Positions 1,878-54,343 of a DNA stretch of 64,000 bases are shown in pieces (positions within the stretch are counted from its first letter, which is position 1; every line of letters starts with the position of its first letter). Under the pieces are notes generated by a model. It saw only the letters and a list, made by a program, of their open reading frames with translations, had not been told where the DNA came from and made no database searches. Origin of the DNA: an uncultured Verrucomicrobiae bacterium (GTDB taxonomy: Bacteria > Verrucomicrobiota > Verrucomicrobiia > Chthoniobacterales > JAFAMB01); the NCBI GenBank assembly GCA_963762565.1, contig CAVXLD010000009.1:64001-128000 (forward strand), read 5' to 3'. Position numbers and translations under genes: made by a program.

Positions 1878-2233
1878 AGGAGCTAGGAGCTAGAATCTAG
1901 GAGCTAGGAGCTAGGAGAAGCGTGTCGGCGTGTCGGCGTGTCGGCGTGGTTGCCACGAAGTGGCGAAACAGAATAGCCCAGGGCTTCGCCCTGGGTTGGG
2001 TTCCAAAAAGAGGATCGCCCTGAAGGGGTGACCGACATTGGACGCTGCGTTGGCCACATCGTCGCACAGGCTTGAACAAGAAACTTGGCGAGCACGGATT
2101 CTCCTCTCCCGCCCTTTCAGGGCGGATCCATGAGGGCCGTCATACCCAGGGCTAAAGCCCTGGGCTGTTCTGTTTAGCCACTTCGTGGCATTCGCCGCAT
2201 CGCCGACACGCTTCTCCTAGCTCCTAGCTCCTC
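1878..2233. repeat. REPIN/MITE-like palindromic element with heptamer (GGAGCTA/TAGCTCC) arms
   Basis: Core 1951-2190 is bounded by tgccacgaagtggc...gccacttcgtggca and contains cccagggc..gccctggg hairpins; same layout as the ends flanking the TnpA at 38.2 kb. Confidence 0.75.
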
Positions 2234-2923: not shown

Positions 2924-3210
2924 TAGCCTGCAAGGCTTTCTAAGGCGCCCGCCTTAGAAAGCCTTGCAGGCTATGGCAGCAACCTGATCTGGCCTACAGC
3001 GGATCAGGTTGCTGCTACTCTAAAAGGAGGATTGGTGGGTAGTTTAGGTCTTCTCAAAAAGCAGCAGAATGGCCGGCGTAAGCCGGGCATTCTGCTGCCA
3101 TAGCGAGCATTTCGCACAAATCCGCTGCCGCTGACTTTGTGGCTGTTACCGGAAACAGGTCCGAAAACCGGCGCTAGAACACAGAGCGGATTTGTGCGAA
3201 ATGCTCGCTA
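2924..3210. repeat. four-hairpin intergenic element (TAGCCTG family, copy A)
   Basis: Perfect 23-bp stem 2924-2973, hairpins 2976-3015 and 3061-3098, perfect 26-bp stem 3101-3126/3185-3210; related to 54135-54343 and 40661-40862. Confidence 0.8.
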
Positions 3211-12008: not shown

Positions 12009-12208
12009 TCCGTTCCGTAGGAACGGACTGACCTTAGCCAGGCAATTTATTGCCCAGGAGTCGCACAAACGGACCTCGTCCCGAAGGGTACGGTGTGATC
12101 CGCACGCCGTGCTCTGCCACCGGACACGCATTTGCACCTGCTTTTTAATCGTTTGAGTCGCATCCCAAGCAATAAATTGCCTGGCTACGATCGGTCGTCC
12201 CTCCGGGA
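12009..12208. repeat. REPIN-like palindromic element
   Basis: tagccaggcaatttattgcc ... gcaataaattgcctggcta inverted arms with short flanking hairpins. Confidence 0.65.
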
Positions 12209-12388
12209 CACAGGCCACTGTCGCCAACACGCAGCACCGTCCCATTTTCGGTAAACATTCATCCCACTTGCGGGATGAAAATCAGGGATAGAGAGCCGTC
12301 ATTTTAACTGCCCAAAAAAATCTTTATTAAAAATTTCTTCTCGAGAAAGGGCCAAAAATTGGGGTTGGCACGCACTAAAAAAATCGCG

Positions 12389-37793: not shown

Positions 37794-38121
37794 AGAGCAG
37801 TTGCGGAACGATGCCTGGATCGGAGATGCAGTGCTGGCCCTTTTCGCGCGTTCTTGGCTTCTGCAAATTGGTCAAACAGAAAACTCCAAGGATCGCAATC
37901 GCTTGTTCGAATTGTGGGTTTCGAATCAGTTCCTCTCTTCTTTCGGTGAACCAACCTGTGTGGAGGCCGCGATTGGAAGGACCTATGCCAGCGGAGGATT
38001 GGACGCAGCTTTCGCGTTTATTGAGGGGAATCTCTTAAAGCGATTTCTCCAAACCGCCAGAAATCGCGGATTTAATTTGGCGGTGACGAAGAAGCATTCT
38101 AGCGGCGAAGCCGCGACTTAG
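37783..38121 (+). CDS. minimal RNase III-domain protein (Mini-III-like)
   Basis: AWIGDAVL, VSNQFL and TCVEAAIG motifs; 112 aa, no dsRBD; overlaps the thpR stop. Confidence 0.7.
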   Translation: MDPEEQLRNDAWIGDAVLALFARSWLLQIGQTENSKDRNRLFELWVSNQFLSSFGEPTCVEAAIGRTYASGGLDAAFAFIEGNLLKRFLQTARNRGFNLAVTKKHSSGEAAT

Positions 38122-38777
38122 CAGCGAAGCTGCGACTCAAAATAGCCTAGGGTGAAGCCCTAGGAACGTGAATAAATAGCGATTTAGCGCTGAAAGCGCG
38201 TGACAATAACGTATTTTCTTTATGTTATTACTGCGTGCCGCAATCGTTGGCAAGCCTTCTCACCCATTTAATCTTCTCTACCAAGAACCGAAAACCTTTG
38301 CTCTATGGCAAGGATCTCCAAGAACGGACTCACGCTTATCTGGCCACGGTGCTGAATGATTTGAAATGTCCAACCGTGATTGTCGGCGGCGTTGCGAACC
38401 ATGTGCATATCCTCTGTCAGTTGGCCAAAACCAAGTCGGTCTCCGACGTCATGGAGCACCTGAAGGCTTCTTCCTCAAAATGGTTAAAGACACAGGGAAG
38501 CCACGCCTTCAGTTGGCAACGCGGCTATGGCGTTTTCTCCGTCAGCCAGTCGCTGGTCGCCGCCGTTGTTCGTTACATCGAGCGGCAAGAGGAACATCAT
38601 CGCACAATCACATTCGAAGAAGAATATCGATCAATTCTCAAAGGTTACCGAGTCGTGTTTGATGAACGATACGTCTGGGATTAGCGCGGCATTGAAGCGC
38701 ACCTTCAGTGCGCGGCGCTTTGGGGGCGTTGTCCTAGGGCTTCGCCTAGGCTATCTTGAGTCACCGCTTCGCGGCTA
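38119..38777 (+). mobile_element. IS200-type / REP-associated HUH transposase element with palindromic ends
   Basis: Inverted multi-hairpin ends (gactcaaaatagcctaggg...cctagg / cctaggg...cctaggctatcttgagtc) around tnpA. Confidence 0.75.
38235..38684 (+). CDS. tnpA: Y1 HUH transposase (IS200/IS605 TnpA family)
   Basis: HLIFSTKNR, NHVHIL (HUH), WQRGYGVFSVS and YIERQEEHH. Confidence 0.93.
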   Translation: MPQSLASLLTHLIFSTKNRKPLLYGKDLQERTHAYLATVLNDLKCPTVIVGGVANHVHILCQLAKTKSVSDVMEHLKASSSKWLKTQGSHAFSWQRGYGVFSVSQSLVAAVVRYIERQEEHHRTITFEEEYRSILKGYRVVFDERYVWD

Positions 38778-40660: not shown

Positions 40661-40862
40661 AAGCCTGGATTGTTGAAGAATCGCCTACGATTCTTCAACA
40701 ATCCAGGCTATTGCGTCGCGAGTCTTATATTTAAGAGCATTCACCATTAAGGGTACTCACAGCCGTTCGAGTTAGCCGATAGCCAGACGTCGATGTCTGG
40801 GTATCGGCTCATAGCGTGCCTCGCTGAAAAATGGCTAACCATTTTTCAGCGAGGCAGGCTTA
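40661..40862. repeat. multi-hairpin intergenic element (TAGCCTG family, copy C, minus orientation)
   Basis: 22-bp perfect stem 40662-40709, hairpin 40774-40809 and 22-bp stem 40813-40860; spans exactly from the regulator stop to the kinase ATG. Confidence 0.75.
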
Positions 40863-50690: not shown

Positions 50691-51957
50691 AGACGGGGCG
50701 CCGCCGGAAAAAACTATCTTCCGAAAAGCCGCCTTGGAGCGGCTTTCTTCTCCGGAACAGCTCGATTATCTGATGTCGGTCACGTCGCCCGTCGGATGGC
50801 TGGCGCTTTCGGCATTGGCGGGCGTCCTTTTCCTGATTGTGCTTTGGGGGTTTCTTGGACGAATTCCCGATACGGTTTCAGGAAGCGGGATCTTGATTCG
50901 CGGCGGCGCGGTTTACGATGTTTCTGCCGGAAGCGATGGATTCATTACTCAGGTGCTGGTGAAAACGGGCGATCAAGTTAAGGCCGGCCAAGTCGTGGCA
51001 AAGATGAGCCAGTCGCAGTTGGAGCTAAAGATCAAGTCAAGCCAGGCCCAGCTAAAGGTCTTGCAGGGGCAGGACGCCGACATGACCAGTCGGGAGGATA
51101 AGAATGACGCCGCCGCGCTGGCGGACTACAAGAAACAAGATCAGGCATTGCTCGATGCCATTGCCAGCTACAAAGTTCAGATCGAAGCCGACCAGAGAGA
51201 ATTCGAAACTAAAGAAAGCCTACTGCAAAAAGGCTTAACCACGCAGGCTGAAGTCAACAAGGCGCGCGATGCCCTTTACGGCGTTAAGGGTCAGGTCGCG
51301 GATACTCAAGTCAAGGAGAGCCAGATTGGGACGGACGAAATCAAGTTAGCCCGCGACACTCAGACGTCTAGAAACGCGCGCCTGAAAGAGATCAACAGCA
51401 CGAAGCTGCAGCTCCAGGAATATATCGCGGAGCGAGATGCCGGAGTTCAAGTGGTTTGCAATTATTCGGGACGAGTGATCGAAAAGCTGGTTGAACGCGG
51501 CTCACCGGTTGTCGCAAAAGACCGGGTCATCACCGTCGAAGCGGAGGACGCGCCGATGCTGGCGGTAATCTATGTCCCCGCCGGAGAAGGGAAGAAAGTT
51601 CTGCCAAACCAGGAAATTCGGGTTTCACCTTCTACAGTGAAGGCTGAAGAGTATGGATTTATTCTCGGGAAAGTGACAAATGTTTCCTATTTCCCAAGCA
51701 CTCCGGAGGGCATGAAAGTTGTACTCAGAAACGAAGAGTTAGTGAAGGACCTTTCTACGACGGGAGCTCCTATTGAGATCACGGGCGACCTCTATCAAGA
51801 TCGGTCGACTAAGAGCGGGTACCGATGGTCTTCTTCGCAGGGACCATCAACGGGGATTTTCAGCGGCACGCTGGCCCAAGCTTCCATTGTGGTTGACCAG
51901 AAGCCGCCCATCGACTTCGTGATTCCGAAAATCAAAGAAATCCTCGGGCTCAAATGA
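50641..51957 (+). CDS. NHLM bacteriocin system secretion protein (HlyD family)
   Basis: IFRKAALERLSSPEQLD, PSTVKAEEYG and SGYRWSSSQGP. Confidence 0.92.
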   Translation: MSLISNTSQATPPGTTKDGAPPEKTIFRKAALERLSSPEQLDYLMSVTSPVGWLALSALAGVLFLIVLWGFLGRIPDTVSGSGILIRGGAVYDVSAGSDGFITQVLVKTGDQVKAGQVVAKMSQSQLELKIKSSQAQLKVLQGQDADMTSREDKNDAAALADYKKQDQALLDAIASYKVQIEADQREFETKESLLQKGLTTQAEVNKARDALYGVKGQVADTQVKESQIGTDEIKLARDTQTSRNARLKEINSTKLQLQEYIAERDAGVQVVCNYSGRVIEKLVERGSPVVAKDRVITVEAEDAPMLAVIYVPAGEGKKVLPNQEIRVSPSTVKAEEYGFILGKVTNVSYFPSTPEGMKVVLRNEELVKDLSTTGAPIEITGDLYQDRSTKSGYRWSSSQGPSTGIFSGTLAQASIVVDQKPPIDFVIPKIKEILGLK

Positions 51958-54137
51958 GCGACGCCATCCTGCCGTCCGACGGGGCGCTCCCCGCTCGCGT
52001 GATGACGCCGACGCTGCTGCAGATGGAGGCCGTGGAATGCGGGGCGGCGGCGTTGGGCATCATCATGCGGTATTACGATCTGTGGCGCCCGCTGGAGCAG
52101 CTCCGAATGGAATGCGGTGTGACCCGCGACGGCAGCAAAGCGAGTAATTTGTTGAAGGCGGCGCGACGTTTCGGGATGGAGGCGAACGGAATCCGTTGCG
52201 AGCTGAACGCCCTGCTAAAAACCGAACCACCGGTGATTCTCTATTGGAATTTCAATCACTTCCTGGTGTACGAGGGCGTTAGCCAAGGAAAAGTTCATTT
52301 GAACGACCCGGCTACCGGTCCTCGTCGAATTAGCATCGAAGAGCTAGAGGCCTCTTTCACCGGGGTAGTGCTGAAGATCAGCCGCGGTCCGGCCTTCGTA
52401 CCGGGCGGGGAAAAACCTAGCCTGTTAACTGCCTTGCGCCGGCGCATTTCGGGGTTCGAAATCGGTTTGAGTTTTGCGTTTTTAACCGGCTTGCTACTGA
52501 TCATTCCGAATATCGTGAACCCATCATTCACCCGGGTGTTCATCGACCAGTACCTGATCGGAGACAAGACGAGCATTCTCCGCCCATTGGTCGCCTGCAT
52601 GGCGGTCTCAATTGGCTTCATGATTTTGCTGCTTTGGTTGCAGCGCCATTTTCTATTGCGGTTGGAGACTAAGCTCGCCCTCACAACTTCCGCTAAGTTC
52701 TTTACCCATGTGGTCAAGCTGCCCATGGAATTCTATTCGCAGCGCTATGCGGGAGAAATCGGATCACGGGTGCTCATCAACGATAAGGTTGCCAAGGTTC
52801 TCTCCGATAAGCTGGTCACGACCGGGCTCGACCTGATGGCCTTGTTGTTCTTTGCCCTCGTCATGATCCAATATGATTTTTGGCTGACGTTGATCTGCGT
52901 CACCTTTGCCTTCCTCAATTTGATTGCGATCAAGGCCGTTCAACGGCCCCGGACCGATGCAAGCTTCCGGCTGCAGCAAGAACGCGGAAAGATGACCGGG
53001 ACTTCGATGAATGGCGTGCAAATGATTGAGACGCTGAAAGCGACCGGCGGTGAAGACGAGTTTTTTGGGCGGTGGTCAGGTTATCAGGCAAAGACTATCC
53101 GAGCGGAACAGGACATGGATTTATACGGTCAAACCTTGTCTGCCGTGCCTCCGCTGACCAAAGGGTTAATCACGGCCACGATCCTCGGGTTTGGTGGCTG
53201 GAGAGTCATGGATGGTCATTTAACCGTGGGTTTGTTAGTCGCCTTCCAATCATTGATGGATGGGTTCACTAAACCGATTACCTCCTTCGTGACATTCGGT
53301 AATGCGCTCCAGGAGACCGGCTCCGACTTGAACCGGCTCGACGACGTCTTGCGTTATGAAACCGATCCTATTTACGCCAGCGATCGCACGGTCAGCCCTG
53401 AGTTCAAGGCCACCATCAAATTGACCGGACTGCTCGAGGTCCGCAATCTGACCTTTGGGTTTAACCCATTAGGCGCCCCGTTAATTGAGAACCTCAGCTT
53501 CAGGGTCCGGCCGGGTGAGCGGGTCGCTTTGGTGGGCGGTAGCGGCAGCGGTAAATCGACCGTTTCCAAACTGGTAGCCGGCCTTTTCAAACCATGGAGC
53601 GGCGAGATCCTGTTCGACGGGGTTCCGCGAACGCAGATCCCTCGGCGTTTGCTGCACAATTCGATCGGTATGGTTGATCAGGATATCTTCATGTTCGAAG
53701 GCACGATTCGCGACAATCTGACCATGTGGAATCCGACAGTCCTCGACTCTCATATCACTCTAGCGTGTAAGGATTCTGCCATAGCGGAGGACGTAGCCAG
53801 CAGGCAAGGAGGTCTTTCCAGCACCGTTGCAGAAGGCGGGGTCAACTTTTCTGGTGGCCAGCGCCAAAGGCTCGAAATCGCTCGAGCCCTGGTGAATTCG
53901 CCAAGTTTTTTGATTCTGGACGAGGCCACTAGCGCGCTAGATCCAACCACTGAGGAAGTGATTGATCGCAACCTGCGTCGACGCGGCTGTTCCTGTTTAA
54001 TCGTAGCACACCGCCTAAGTACGATCCGTGACTGCGATGAGATCATCGTCCTCGAATATGGAAGAGTGGTAGAACGAGGGACGCACGAATCGATGAAAAA
54101 CGCAGGTGGCCCATATTCGAGGTTAATCAGTCATTAG
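51954..54137 (+). CDS. NHLM ABC transporter with C39 peptidase domain
   Basis: QMEAVECGAAAL, WNFNHF and NDPA (Cys/His/Asp triad); GGSGSGKS, FSGGQRQR and LDEATS. Confidence 0.95.
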   Translation: MSDAILPSDGALPARVMTPTLLQMEAVECGAAALGIIMRYYDLWRPLEQLRMECGVTRDGSKASNLLKAARRFGMEANGIRCELNALLKTEPPVILYWNFNHFLVYEGVSQGKVHLNDPATGPRRISIEELEASFTGVVLKISRGPAFVPGGEKPSLLTALRRRISGFEIGLSFAFLTGLLLIIPNIVNPSFTRVFIDQYLIGDKTSILRPLVACMAVSIGFMILLLWLQRHFLLRLETKLALTTSAKFFTHVVKLPMEFYSQRYAGEIGSRVLINDKVAKVLSDKLVTTGLDLMALLFFALVMIQYDFWLTLICVTFAFLNLIAIKAVQRPRTDASFRLQQERGKMTGTSMNGVQMIETLKATGGEDEFFGRWSGYQAKTIRAEQDMDLYGQTLSAVPPLTKGLITATILGFGGWRVMDGHLTVGLLVAFQSLMDGFTKPITSFVTFGNALQETGSDLNRLDDVLRYETDPIYASDRTVSPEFKATIKLTGLLEVRNLTFGFNPLGAPLIENLSFRVRPGERVALVGGSGSGKSTVSKLVAGLFKPWSGEILFDGVPRTQIPRRLLHNSIGMVDQDIFMFEGTIRDNLTMWNPTVLDSHITLACKDSAIAEDVASRQGGLSSTVAEGGVNFSGGQRQRLEIARALVNSPSFLILDEATSALDPTTEEVIDRNLRRRGCSCLIVAHRLSTIRDCDEIIVLEYGRVVERGTHESMKNAGGPYSRLISH

Positions 54138-54343
54138 CCTGCGCCGTCTTTGAAAGCGCAGGCTTTCAAAGACGGCGCAGGCTATGGGCAGTTAGACCGG
54201 CGCTACCGCGCCGGTCTAACTGCCTGTGCGAAGAACTATGTGTGAGAAACTACCAACAAATTTTGGGAGTGCAGGAGAATGGTCCGGCGTAGCCGGGGCA
54301 TTCTCCTGCCATAGCCTGGATCGCTAGTAGATCCAGGCTTCTT
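54135..54343. repeat. four-hairpin intergenic element (TAGCCTG family, copy B)
   Basis: Perfect 23-bp stem 54135-54184, 17-bp stem 54187-54224, hairpin 54271-54309 and 10-bp stem 54313-54339; lies between stop and ATG of the two transporter genes. Confidence 0.8.

Follow-up and report, generated by a model that had tools for sequence, protein, structure and literature searches.

Three rows of hairpins at gene junctions

The window analyzed here, a 64,000-nt stretch of a contig from an uncultured Verrucomicrobiae bacterium (genome G000), carries three multi-hairpin elements, copies A, B and C, each of which is a row of separate self-paired hairpins (Table 1). Copy A occupies a divergent gap upstream of an ECF sigma gene, copy B lies between two long co-directional ORFs, and copy C separates a sigma-54 response regulator from its histidine kinase. 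The first-pass annotation of the window had described three copies with this layout, ending almost at the start codons GTG 3211, ATG 54344 and ATG 40660, and this description was confirmed. The last hairpin, H4, ends 0-4 nt upstream of the start codon in all three copies, and the first three bases of copies B and C are the stop codon of the upstream ORF (for copy C, TAA 40862-40860 of the sigma-54 response-regulator ORF). Folded as single-stranded DNA, copies A, B and C reach -109.6, -90.4 and -67.9 kcal/mol, respectively. Against a null of 200 dinucleotide shuffles these energies correspond to z-scores of -17.4, -15.7 and -14.3, and none of the 200 shuffles folded equally well.

Table 1. Hairpins, spacers and neighboring repeat features in the window
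Feature	Position	Strand	Description
Copy A H1	2924-2973	+	perfect stem of the family type, TAGCCTGC...GCAGGCTA; covariance-model match C9:66917-66980
Copy A H2	2976-3015	+	14-bp perfect stem (GCAGCAACCTGATC...); TG between H1 and H2
Copy A spacer	3016-3060	+	unconserved
Copy A H3	3061-3098	+	H2-type hairpin in inverse orientation, GCAG.AGAATG..CCGGC loop GCCGG..CATTCT.CTGC
Copy A H4	3101-3210	+	26-bp stem, 53-nt loop; abuts GTG 3211 of the ECF sigma gene
Copy B H1	54135-54184	+	23 bp perfect, 4-nt loop; begins with TAG, which ends ORF 51954-54137 as its stop codon
Copy B H2	54187-54224	+	17 bp perfect
Copy B spacer	54225-54270	+	divergence from congeners 41-51%
Copy B H3	54271-54309	+	H2-type hairpin in inverse orientation
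Copy B H4	54313-54339	+	short (10 bp) H1-like hairpin, 4 nt upstream of ATG 54344
Copy C H1	40813-40862	-	H1 40860-40813, TA 40862-40861; one C/C mismatch
Copy C H2	40774-40809	-	15 bp, imperfect
Copy C spacer	40710-40773	-	retains the left arm only (ACGCAAT) of the H3 found in four congeners
Copy C H4	40662-40709	-	full 22-bp perfect H1-type hairpin, 1 nt upstream of histidine-kinase ATG 40660
REP-like head	38120-38164	-	ATAGCC + 7-bp hairpin upstream of the Y1 transposase; matches Rfam Acido-Lenti-1
Y1_Tnp (IS200-like / RAYT-like) ORF	38235-38684	+	flanked by inverted ATAGCC hairpins, not by H1

The lengths previously given for the first stem need some amendment. The 23-bp stem with a 4-nt loop stands for copy B, and copy A can be drawn either in that form or as 24 perfect bp with a 2-nt loop. 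In copy C the stem is interrupted, with 18 perfect bp followed by a C/C mismatch and 3 further bp. The junction between H1 and H2, GGCTATGGCAG, is the reverse complement of the junction between H3 and H4, CTGCCATAGCC, in copies A and B, so that the element is an inverted pair of two-hairpin units. Copy C lacks H3, apart from the left-arm remnant in its spacer. Hairpins resembling H3 of copy B adjoin H1 matches in other genera. H4 of copy A is a different, longer hairpin, and 18 bp of each of its arms are invariant in four species. Within its loop the motif CTAGAAC is likewise invariant in four species and the remainder drifts. Since its right arm ends at the GTG, this hairpin may be a candidate promoter or operator region of the ECF sigma gene.

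An origin of the palindromes as assembly or fold-back artefacts is ruled out by independent contigs and by the assemblies of four other species, which carry elements at identical sites. The independent contigs, from other runs, span copy B (X2 record 7 and X5 record 15) and copy C (X2 record 1).

A hairpin repeat family of narrow taxonomic range

The repeat unit consists of H1 followed by H2. H1 has a 22-bp, usually perfect stem with the base AGCCTGC, a variable core and the tip AAATGC, and H2 is a 12-17-bp hairpin joined to H1 via GGCT-ATG-GCAG. An alignment of 54 H1 hairpins yields the consensus AGCCTGCATCGCT.A.AAATGC, loop, complement, then ATGGC, in which positions 1-6 and 17-19 of the stem are the most conserved and positions 14-16 the most variable. 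The corresponding H2 consensus is GGCAG.AGAATG.TCCGGC, loop, complement. The stem interiors of copies A-C had been called unrelated, which is too strong: they differ greatly, yet base and tip are common to all, and the left arms of A and B agree at 14 of 22 positions.

The 6.1-Mb genome contains 106 perfect palindromes with stems of at least 14 bp. Their length distribution has a second peak at 21-24 bp (36 cases), and nearly all of these belong to one consensus. When up to two mismatches were admitted, 58 H1 hairpins were found, of which 4 were of another family or nested, leaving 54. An H2 hairpin follows 2-4 nt downstream of about 36 of these 54, and inverted pairs around an unconserved spacer make up 10 of 44 H1 clusters under a strict screen. 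A covariance model built on H1 gives 128 strand matches in the genome, which by a reading of the match table fall at about 70 places. Loci A-C are thus confirmed as members of one family of small hairpin-forming DNA repeats.

The family extends beyond this genome, within a narrow taxonomic range. Across genomes sampled from the order, the H1 model matches 12 of the 15 other genomes of the same family and none of the 135 genomes from the other 15 families, which limits the repeats to one family of soil Verrucomicrobia. H2-type matches adjoin H1 model matches in G014, G019 and G004, so the two-hairpin unit is common to at least three genera. A scan of the species collection with a strict 5-nt-loop pattern found two loci, both in Verrucomicrobiota MAGs, too few to describe a distribution. 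Copies A, B and C have no match in Rfam at gathering scores; at E values up to 1 they match generic miRNA-precursor hairpin models only, at 20-39 bits against cut-offs of 54-128. The 20 runs listed as containing the stretch include no RNA run.

Anchoring on stop and start codons

Many H1 hairpins touch the coding sequence beside them. An ORF of at least 100 codons has its stop codon exactly at offset -1 or -2 from the A of AGCC at 19 of the 108 H1 ends, where the outer TAG or TAA of H1 overlaps the stem. Stop codons of such ORFs number 35 anywhere from -60 to +30 of the H1 ends. A control palindrome family (33 palindromes) has 3 stops in the same interval and none at offsets -1 or -2 of its 66 ends. 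An ATG or TTG that opens at least 80 codons is found within 0-3 nt of 10 of the 108 H1 ends. At loci B and C, the positions of stop and start are unchanged relative to relatives without the element. The anchoring could be caused by a preference for TA or TAG, or by selection against other positions.

The gene contexts of the clusters are unremarkable. For 31 clusters, the genes on either side could be assigned from open frames, without a gene caller. Of these, 17 lie between tandem, 7 between convergent and 7 between divergent genes, a mix near that of any intergenic element. The genes between clustered H1 hairpins on contigs 7, 11, 6 and 1 look ordinary, with ECF sigma and DapF-like products suggested by their first residues, and nothing transposase-like was seen among them when read by eye.

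Coordinated change of the two arms

The first-pass annotation had proposed that structure is kept while sequence turns over. The 54 H1 hairpins had been selected for pairing, and the 96% of paired cells in their alignment are therefore circular evidence. Two approaches free of this selection were used. In a one-arm test, sites were defined by a pattern on a single arm (8 fixed bases) and the best downstream complement was scored. The outcome was bimodal: 64 sites had 0-2 mismatches, 16 had 3-7, and 365 had 9 or more. The second approach was a metagenome scan in which base and tip were fixed and the 9+9 bases of the core were left free, which found 79 loci with 76 distinct hairpins and 62 different left cores. 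Core mismatches numbered 0, 1, 2, 3 and 5 in 30, 31, 8, 6 and 1 cases, respectively, where independent cores would average 6.75. The free 9-bp cores of 61 of the 76 end-matched hairpins therefore carry at most one mismatch. The two arms of H1 change together, and the proposal holds.

The residual mismatches were oriented by the flanking open frames. By this rough orientation, G-U-type and A-C-type mismatches are equally frequent, 16 against 16 in the metagenome and 6 against 6 in G000. This equality gives no sign of RNA wobble tolerance; fast correction would erase such a signal.

Insertion, inheritance and loss at orthologous sites

The orthologous junctions of related genomes record the history of the three loci. 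Pairs were scored on multiple alignments, pairwise scoring being noisy because MAFFT misaligns inside palindromes. At locus B, G002, G003 and G005 have the complete H1-H2-spacer-H3-H4 row at the same junction, and in G004 H4 is the sole hairpin between TAG and ATG. The same junction measures 4 nt in G024 and 12 nt in G007, both of other genera. Two-sided changes affect 18 of the 71 predicted pairs, 12 of them within the 22 pairs of H1.

At locus C, the complete row is found in G003, G004 and G005. G000 has lost H3 except for its left arm, most of H1 is gone from G002, and G001 has an unrelated repeat instead. Two-sided changes are seen in 11 of 73 pairs; at one H1 pair, three species have C-G, A-T or G-C and the fourth has the C/C mismatch. 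The H4 stem of G003-G005 includes the kinase ATG, with a matching change on the opposite arm. In other genera the junction is 3-22 nt long (G020, G014 and G105), and in G023, G163, G162, G012 and G022 it is filled by other, unrelated hairpin repeats.

Locus A is more fragmented. G005 matches G000, with two-sided changes in 7 of 63 pairs, and H2 of copy A shows 4 compensated pairs relative to G005. G004 is without H2-spacer-H3 and G003 without H1-H2; G002 has a different 470-nt repeat together with the right arm of H4 only, and G001 has a single H1-like hairpin with a large loop. A further doublet, on contig C11, is present in G002, G003 and G005 and survives as a remnant in G004, and it too shows two-sided changes.

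These comparisons show that the elements are insertions into formerly short junctions, since the junctions of other genera at loci B and C are short. They predate the divergence of most species in the genus. Inheritance within the genus has been vertical, and decay has been piecemeal, by deletions that start or end at hairpin feet. Parts of the mosaics differ in presence between congeners, with sharp edges, which supports the first-pass interpretation in this respect. Absence was judged as loss where shared derived states help, as for H4 of G002 and G004 at locus B. No case was seen that requires a recent gain: all presence/absence differences that could be polarized look like losses.

Evolutionary rates and possible replacement of a core

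Rates were compared between G000 and its congeners in five regions, giving 11 locus-by-species pairs that are non-independent. The H1 base differs at 36 of 312 positions (11.5%), the H1 centre at 162 of 699 (23.2%) and the H1 loops at 40 of 108 (37%). For reference, differences are found at 2174 of 5176 third codon positions (42%), at 1142 of 10353 first and second codon positions (11%) and at 706 of 1952 other intergenic positions (36%). The H1 arms thus evolve about half as fast as loops and codon position 3, and the base is as slow as protein-coding positions. Misalignment of palindromes can only inflate the divergence of a hairpin, so the arms are slower than neutral sites. Because copying between arms alone predicts the neutral rate, selection or another homogenizing force must act.

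The H1 core of locus B (54143-54176) follows a different course. Between G000 and each of G002, G003 and G005, 10-11 of 13-14 core positions are different, and the cores of the latter three differ mutually at 0-1 of 13-14 positions, though their spacers differ by 36-50%. All four orthologous cores are perfectly paired. This looks like replacement of the whole core rather than drift.

Search for a mobilizing enzyme

No cognate transposase could be tied to the family by position among the 35 Y1-transposase loci and three IS-like families inspected. The first-pass annotation had noted an ATAGCC motif at the ends of an HUH TnpA element in the window, and this motif does flank the Y1 transposase ORF (Table 1). 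The REP-like head upstream of that ORF belongs to a different repeat family, which shares with H1 the ATAGCC head only. H1 itself flanks none of the 12 Y1_Tnp loci of G000, whose own REPs consist of (G/A)TAGCC and a 7-8-bp hairpin. The 23 Y1_Tnp loci of five relatives (G004, G014, G019, G134 and G020) yielded two strong H1 model matches, both more than 1.1 kb from the gene, which leaves none of the 23 with a match within that distance. The implied link between the hairpins and the TnpA element is therefore not supported. With no RAYT flanked by H1, the family does not behave as a REPtron in any of the genomes searched.

The three multi-copy 1.6-kb IS-like families have no H1 or H2 ends. A Rep_trans-like insertion sequence that targets TAG was also considered and rejected: PF02486 has no match in the genome, and the 1.6-kb family that inserts after GGTAG has unrelated ends. 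Another 1.6-kb family ends at a GGCAG hairpin that looks like H2, but this hairpin is the target repeat of that element.

Some sequence is shared with the REPs of this genome. H1 has TAGCCTG(G)CA in common with the commonest of them (32 copies), and on contig 3 the REPs of RAYT-like proteins begin GTAGCCTGG. This sharing suggests that H1 may be a REP with an inner hairpin in its loop.

Relation to known repeat systems

The nearest described repeats are of the REP/BIME kind. Di Nocera et al. (2013, PMC3733652) and a study of TnpA-REP (PMC8266576) portray these as short extragenic hairpins in tens of copies, with a (G/A)TAG-like head, sub-families with alternative complementary stem residues, frequent inverted pairs, mosaics with other hairpins, and sites inside operons and after genes. 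The H1 family resembles them in each of these respects. The differences lie in the hairpin itself: the REP palindromic unit has 20-40 nt and a stem of about 5-13 bp (PMC3733652), whereas H1 has 48-50 nt and a mostly perfect 22-bp stem. The conserved GTAG of a REP is unpaired and at one end, whereas the (A/T)TAG head of H1 is paired with CTA at the other foot, on both strands. REPs are also rare between divergent genes, where H1 is not depleted (7 of 31 clusters). In addition, many H1 hairpins abut a stop or start codon to the base, and no RAYT gene is flanked by H1 in the 35 loci. The element had been called undescribed. This stands to the extent that the family is real and without an Rfam match, but its layout is that of a REP/BIME-type hairpin mosaic, with 22-bp stems and without the unpaired tag.

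REPINs, as characterized by Bertels and Rainey (2011, PMC3116915), are likewise inverted doublets with a poorly conserved spacer that persist vertically in one lineage. Compensatory changes are described there as common in REPINs, and they are seen in the H1 family as well. H1 doublets differ in that each half pairs with itself and has its own differing core, rather than the halves pairing with each other, and in that H1 forms no master sequence cloud, with 62 distinct cores among 76 copies. A single-copy RAYT with H1 ends was not found either.

A third point of comparison is a mutational process. Template switching turns imperfect inverted repeats perfect, and its effect is expected to grow with arm length, according to Lavi et al. 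(2018, PMC5941160). Such quasi-palindrome correction (the Ripley model) explains both the perfect arms of H1 and the two-sided changes without an RNA function. It leaves the consensus, the spread to about 70 sites and the slower-than-neutral rate unexplained.

The Correia/NEMIS MITEs of Neisseria are small inverted-repeat elements at TA, often inside operons near genes, and are transcribed into hairpins that RNase III cuts. They measure 100-155 bp, have 26-bp terminal repeats that pair mutually, and are recent and nearly identical. In the present family, by contrast, each 48-nt H1 hairpin is its own palindrome and the cores differ between copies. Two further candidates were rejected. H1 is no intrinsic terminator, as its 3' flank is A(T/C)GGCAG or unique sequence without a T run. 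Integron attC sites, which likewise conserve structure over sequence, were set aside because no R/L boxes, GTT core or cassette array were seen by reading.

Proposed explanation and its alternatives

Taken together, loci A-C are best explained, with moderate confidence, as old insertions of a lineage-specific REP/BIME-like hairpin repeat family without a known transposase, in which the arms are kept matched by template switching, selection or both. The family is of the REP/BIME kind, but long-stemmed, self-matching, codon-anchored and under some constraint. Spread would have been effected in trans by a single-strand, hairpin-recognizing enzyme of the RAYT kind, as suggested by the (A/G)TAGCCTG head common to H1 and the REPs of the genome. 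Intra-hairpin template switching during replication would then copy one arm onto the other and so keep the arms matched. Purifying selection on base, tip and pairing would probably act in addition, given that the arms change about half as fast as loops and codon position 3. The units frequently form inverted pairs around a free spacer, and the whole then spans the interval between a stop codon and the following start codon. The copies would be transcribed within operons, and a 22-bp hairpin in contact with a stop or start codon would there influence termination, initiation or the processing of the mRNA. Counting against this explanation are the lack of a cognate transposase at the loci inspected, the departures from the defining features of REPs, the lack of any case that requires recent gain, the slower-than-neutral rate of the arms, which template switching alone does not predict, and the core of locus B, whose pattern gradual change fails to explain.

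If correct, this explanation would widen the REP/BIME kind to include hairpins that are long, perfect and self-matching and that lack a partner transposase, in a soil phylum that has received little study. The data also show that DNA repeats can display very strong double-sided "covariation", which calls for caution in RNA-motif discovery based on covariation only. Should a host function underlie the constraint on base, tip and pairing, a single control element would be common to about 70 operon junctions and could be tested directly.

A stronger version of such a host function is possible, and we hold it with low confidence: the H1-H2 unit would be a functional "gene-boundary" hairpin of one verrucomicrobial family whose base and tip are read by a putative factor, as folded single-stranded DNA or as RNA, and which is selected at about 70 junctions, with a core that can be rewritten whole while staying perfectly paired, as at locus B. 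Such rewriting would suggest that the hairpin is regenerated, with one arm synthesized from the other during insertion or repair. To our knowledge, no such step is part of the known REP/RAYT and MITE mechanisms.

The hairpins could instead be cis-acting elements of operon mRNAs that are selected as RNA, serving as processing sites, stabilizers or brakes on termination or initiation, with their repeat nature secondary. We consider this unlikely, although several results speak for it. The arms of H1, above all base and tip, evolve slower than loops and codon position 3; pairing is kept at the orthologous sites B and C; the hairpins are in contact with genuine stop and start codons of conserved genes; and co-directional genes flank 17 of the 31 clusters. 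At 22 bp, a perfect RNA helix also has the length of a classical RNase III substrate, and work by Liang, Rudd and Deutscher in 2015 is said to have found that E. coli REPs near stop codons lower the expression of the upstream gene. These points are opposed by the lack of any excess of G-U over A-C mismatches (16 against 16 and 6 against 6, roughly oriented) and by the lack of a matching Rfam family. The H1-H2 unit is also found in either orientation and in every gene context, the 7 divergent regions among them. Furthermore, the junctions of other genera are short or filled by different repeats, which indicates that the genes work without the hairpins.

Descent from a DDE transposon that targets and duplicates TA (IS630/Tc1-like), with the hairpins as its MITEs and H1 as a palindromic mini-element flanked by TA, is very improbable. 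H1 is usually flanked by T and A (a T precedes it in 46 of the 76 metagenome copies), TA or TAG borders the missing blocks of loci A and B at either edge, and the stop codons TAG and TAA themselves hold TA. The flanking T and A extend the palindrome, however, so that a target duplication is indistinguishable from stem. No long element with H1 ends was found among the multi-copy elements of the genome (the three 1.6-kb families), and neither the conserved inner tip nor the fixed 22-bp length has a role in a DDE model. The copies are moreover old and common to several species, yet their arms are undecayed, unlike MITE ends.

Finally, it is hardly credible that no mobile family exists and that local intergenic palindromes arose by template switching and are alike by chance or shared constraint. 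In favor of this view, some hairpins that are complete in congeners are reduced to a single arm (H4 of locus A in G002, H3 of locus C in G000), and the H4 arm of locus C adapts to the start codon. Against it, the 22-bp consensus, the fixed stem length and the neighbor hairpin are common to some 54-70 copies at unrelated loci, and the H1-H2 unit recurs in at least three genera. The shared consensus already contradicts a local origin.

Other repeats in the window and genome

Several other repeats were encountered. A second palindrome family, CGCGCCGAGCCGTGG - 11 nt - CCACGGCTCGGCGCG, has 33 copies by pattern (e.g., C9:183469-183511 and C9:151730-151770, outside the window) and shows no anchoring on stop codons. 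Rfam Acido-Lenti-1 (RF01687) matches the window at 1951-1995 (-), 12165-12210 (+) and 38120-38164 (-). The last of these has an inverted partner at about 38724-38748, and the first is half of an inverted pair (1951-1995 / 2140-2190), which is bracketed by tandem short repeats (GGAGCTAG units and GTGTCGGC units) at 1880-1950 and 2190-2235. In this genome the Acido-Lenti-1 "sRNA" motif looks like the REP of a RAYT.

A four-copy element of 1.63 kb is present in G000 at C1:471654-473315, C3:319409-321063, C4:141684-143336 and C9:30235-31862. It lacks terminal inverted repeats and sits immediately after GGTAG in a short repeat. Its sequence finishes with CCATAG, and a hairpin lies close to the left end. 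Within the window, the segment 43606-44206 is a multi-copy repeat with a variable inner segment; its summed depth in X2 is 10-fold higher, and segments of 58-72 nt are exchanged at many joints. The response regulator-kinase junction that holds copy C in G000 is occupied in G023, G163 and G162, of another genus, by elements of 300-480 nt, each folding into one very long hairpin and with ends like CTGACAGAAGATCGCAGAG. Operon junctions appear to be places where several repeat families commonly land or survive.
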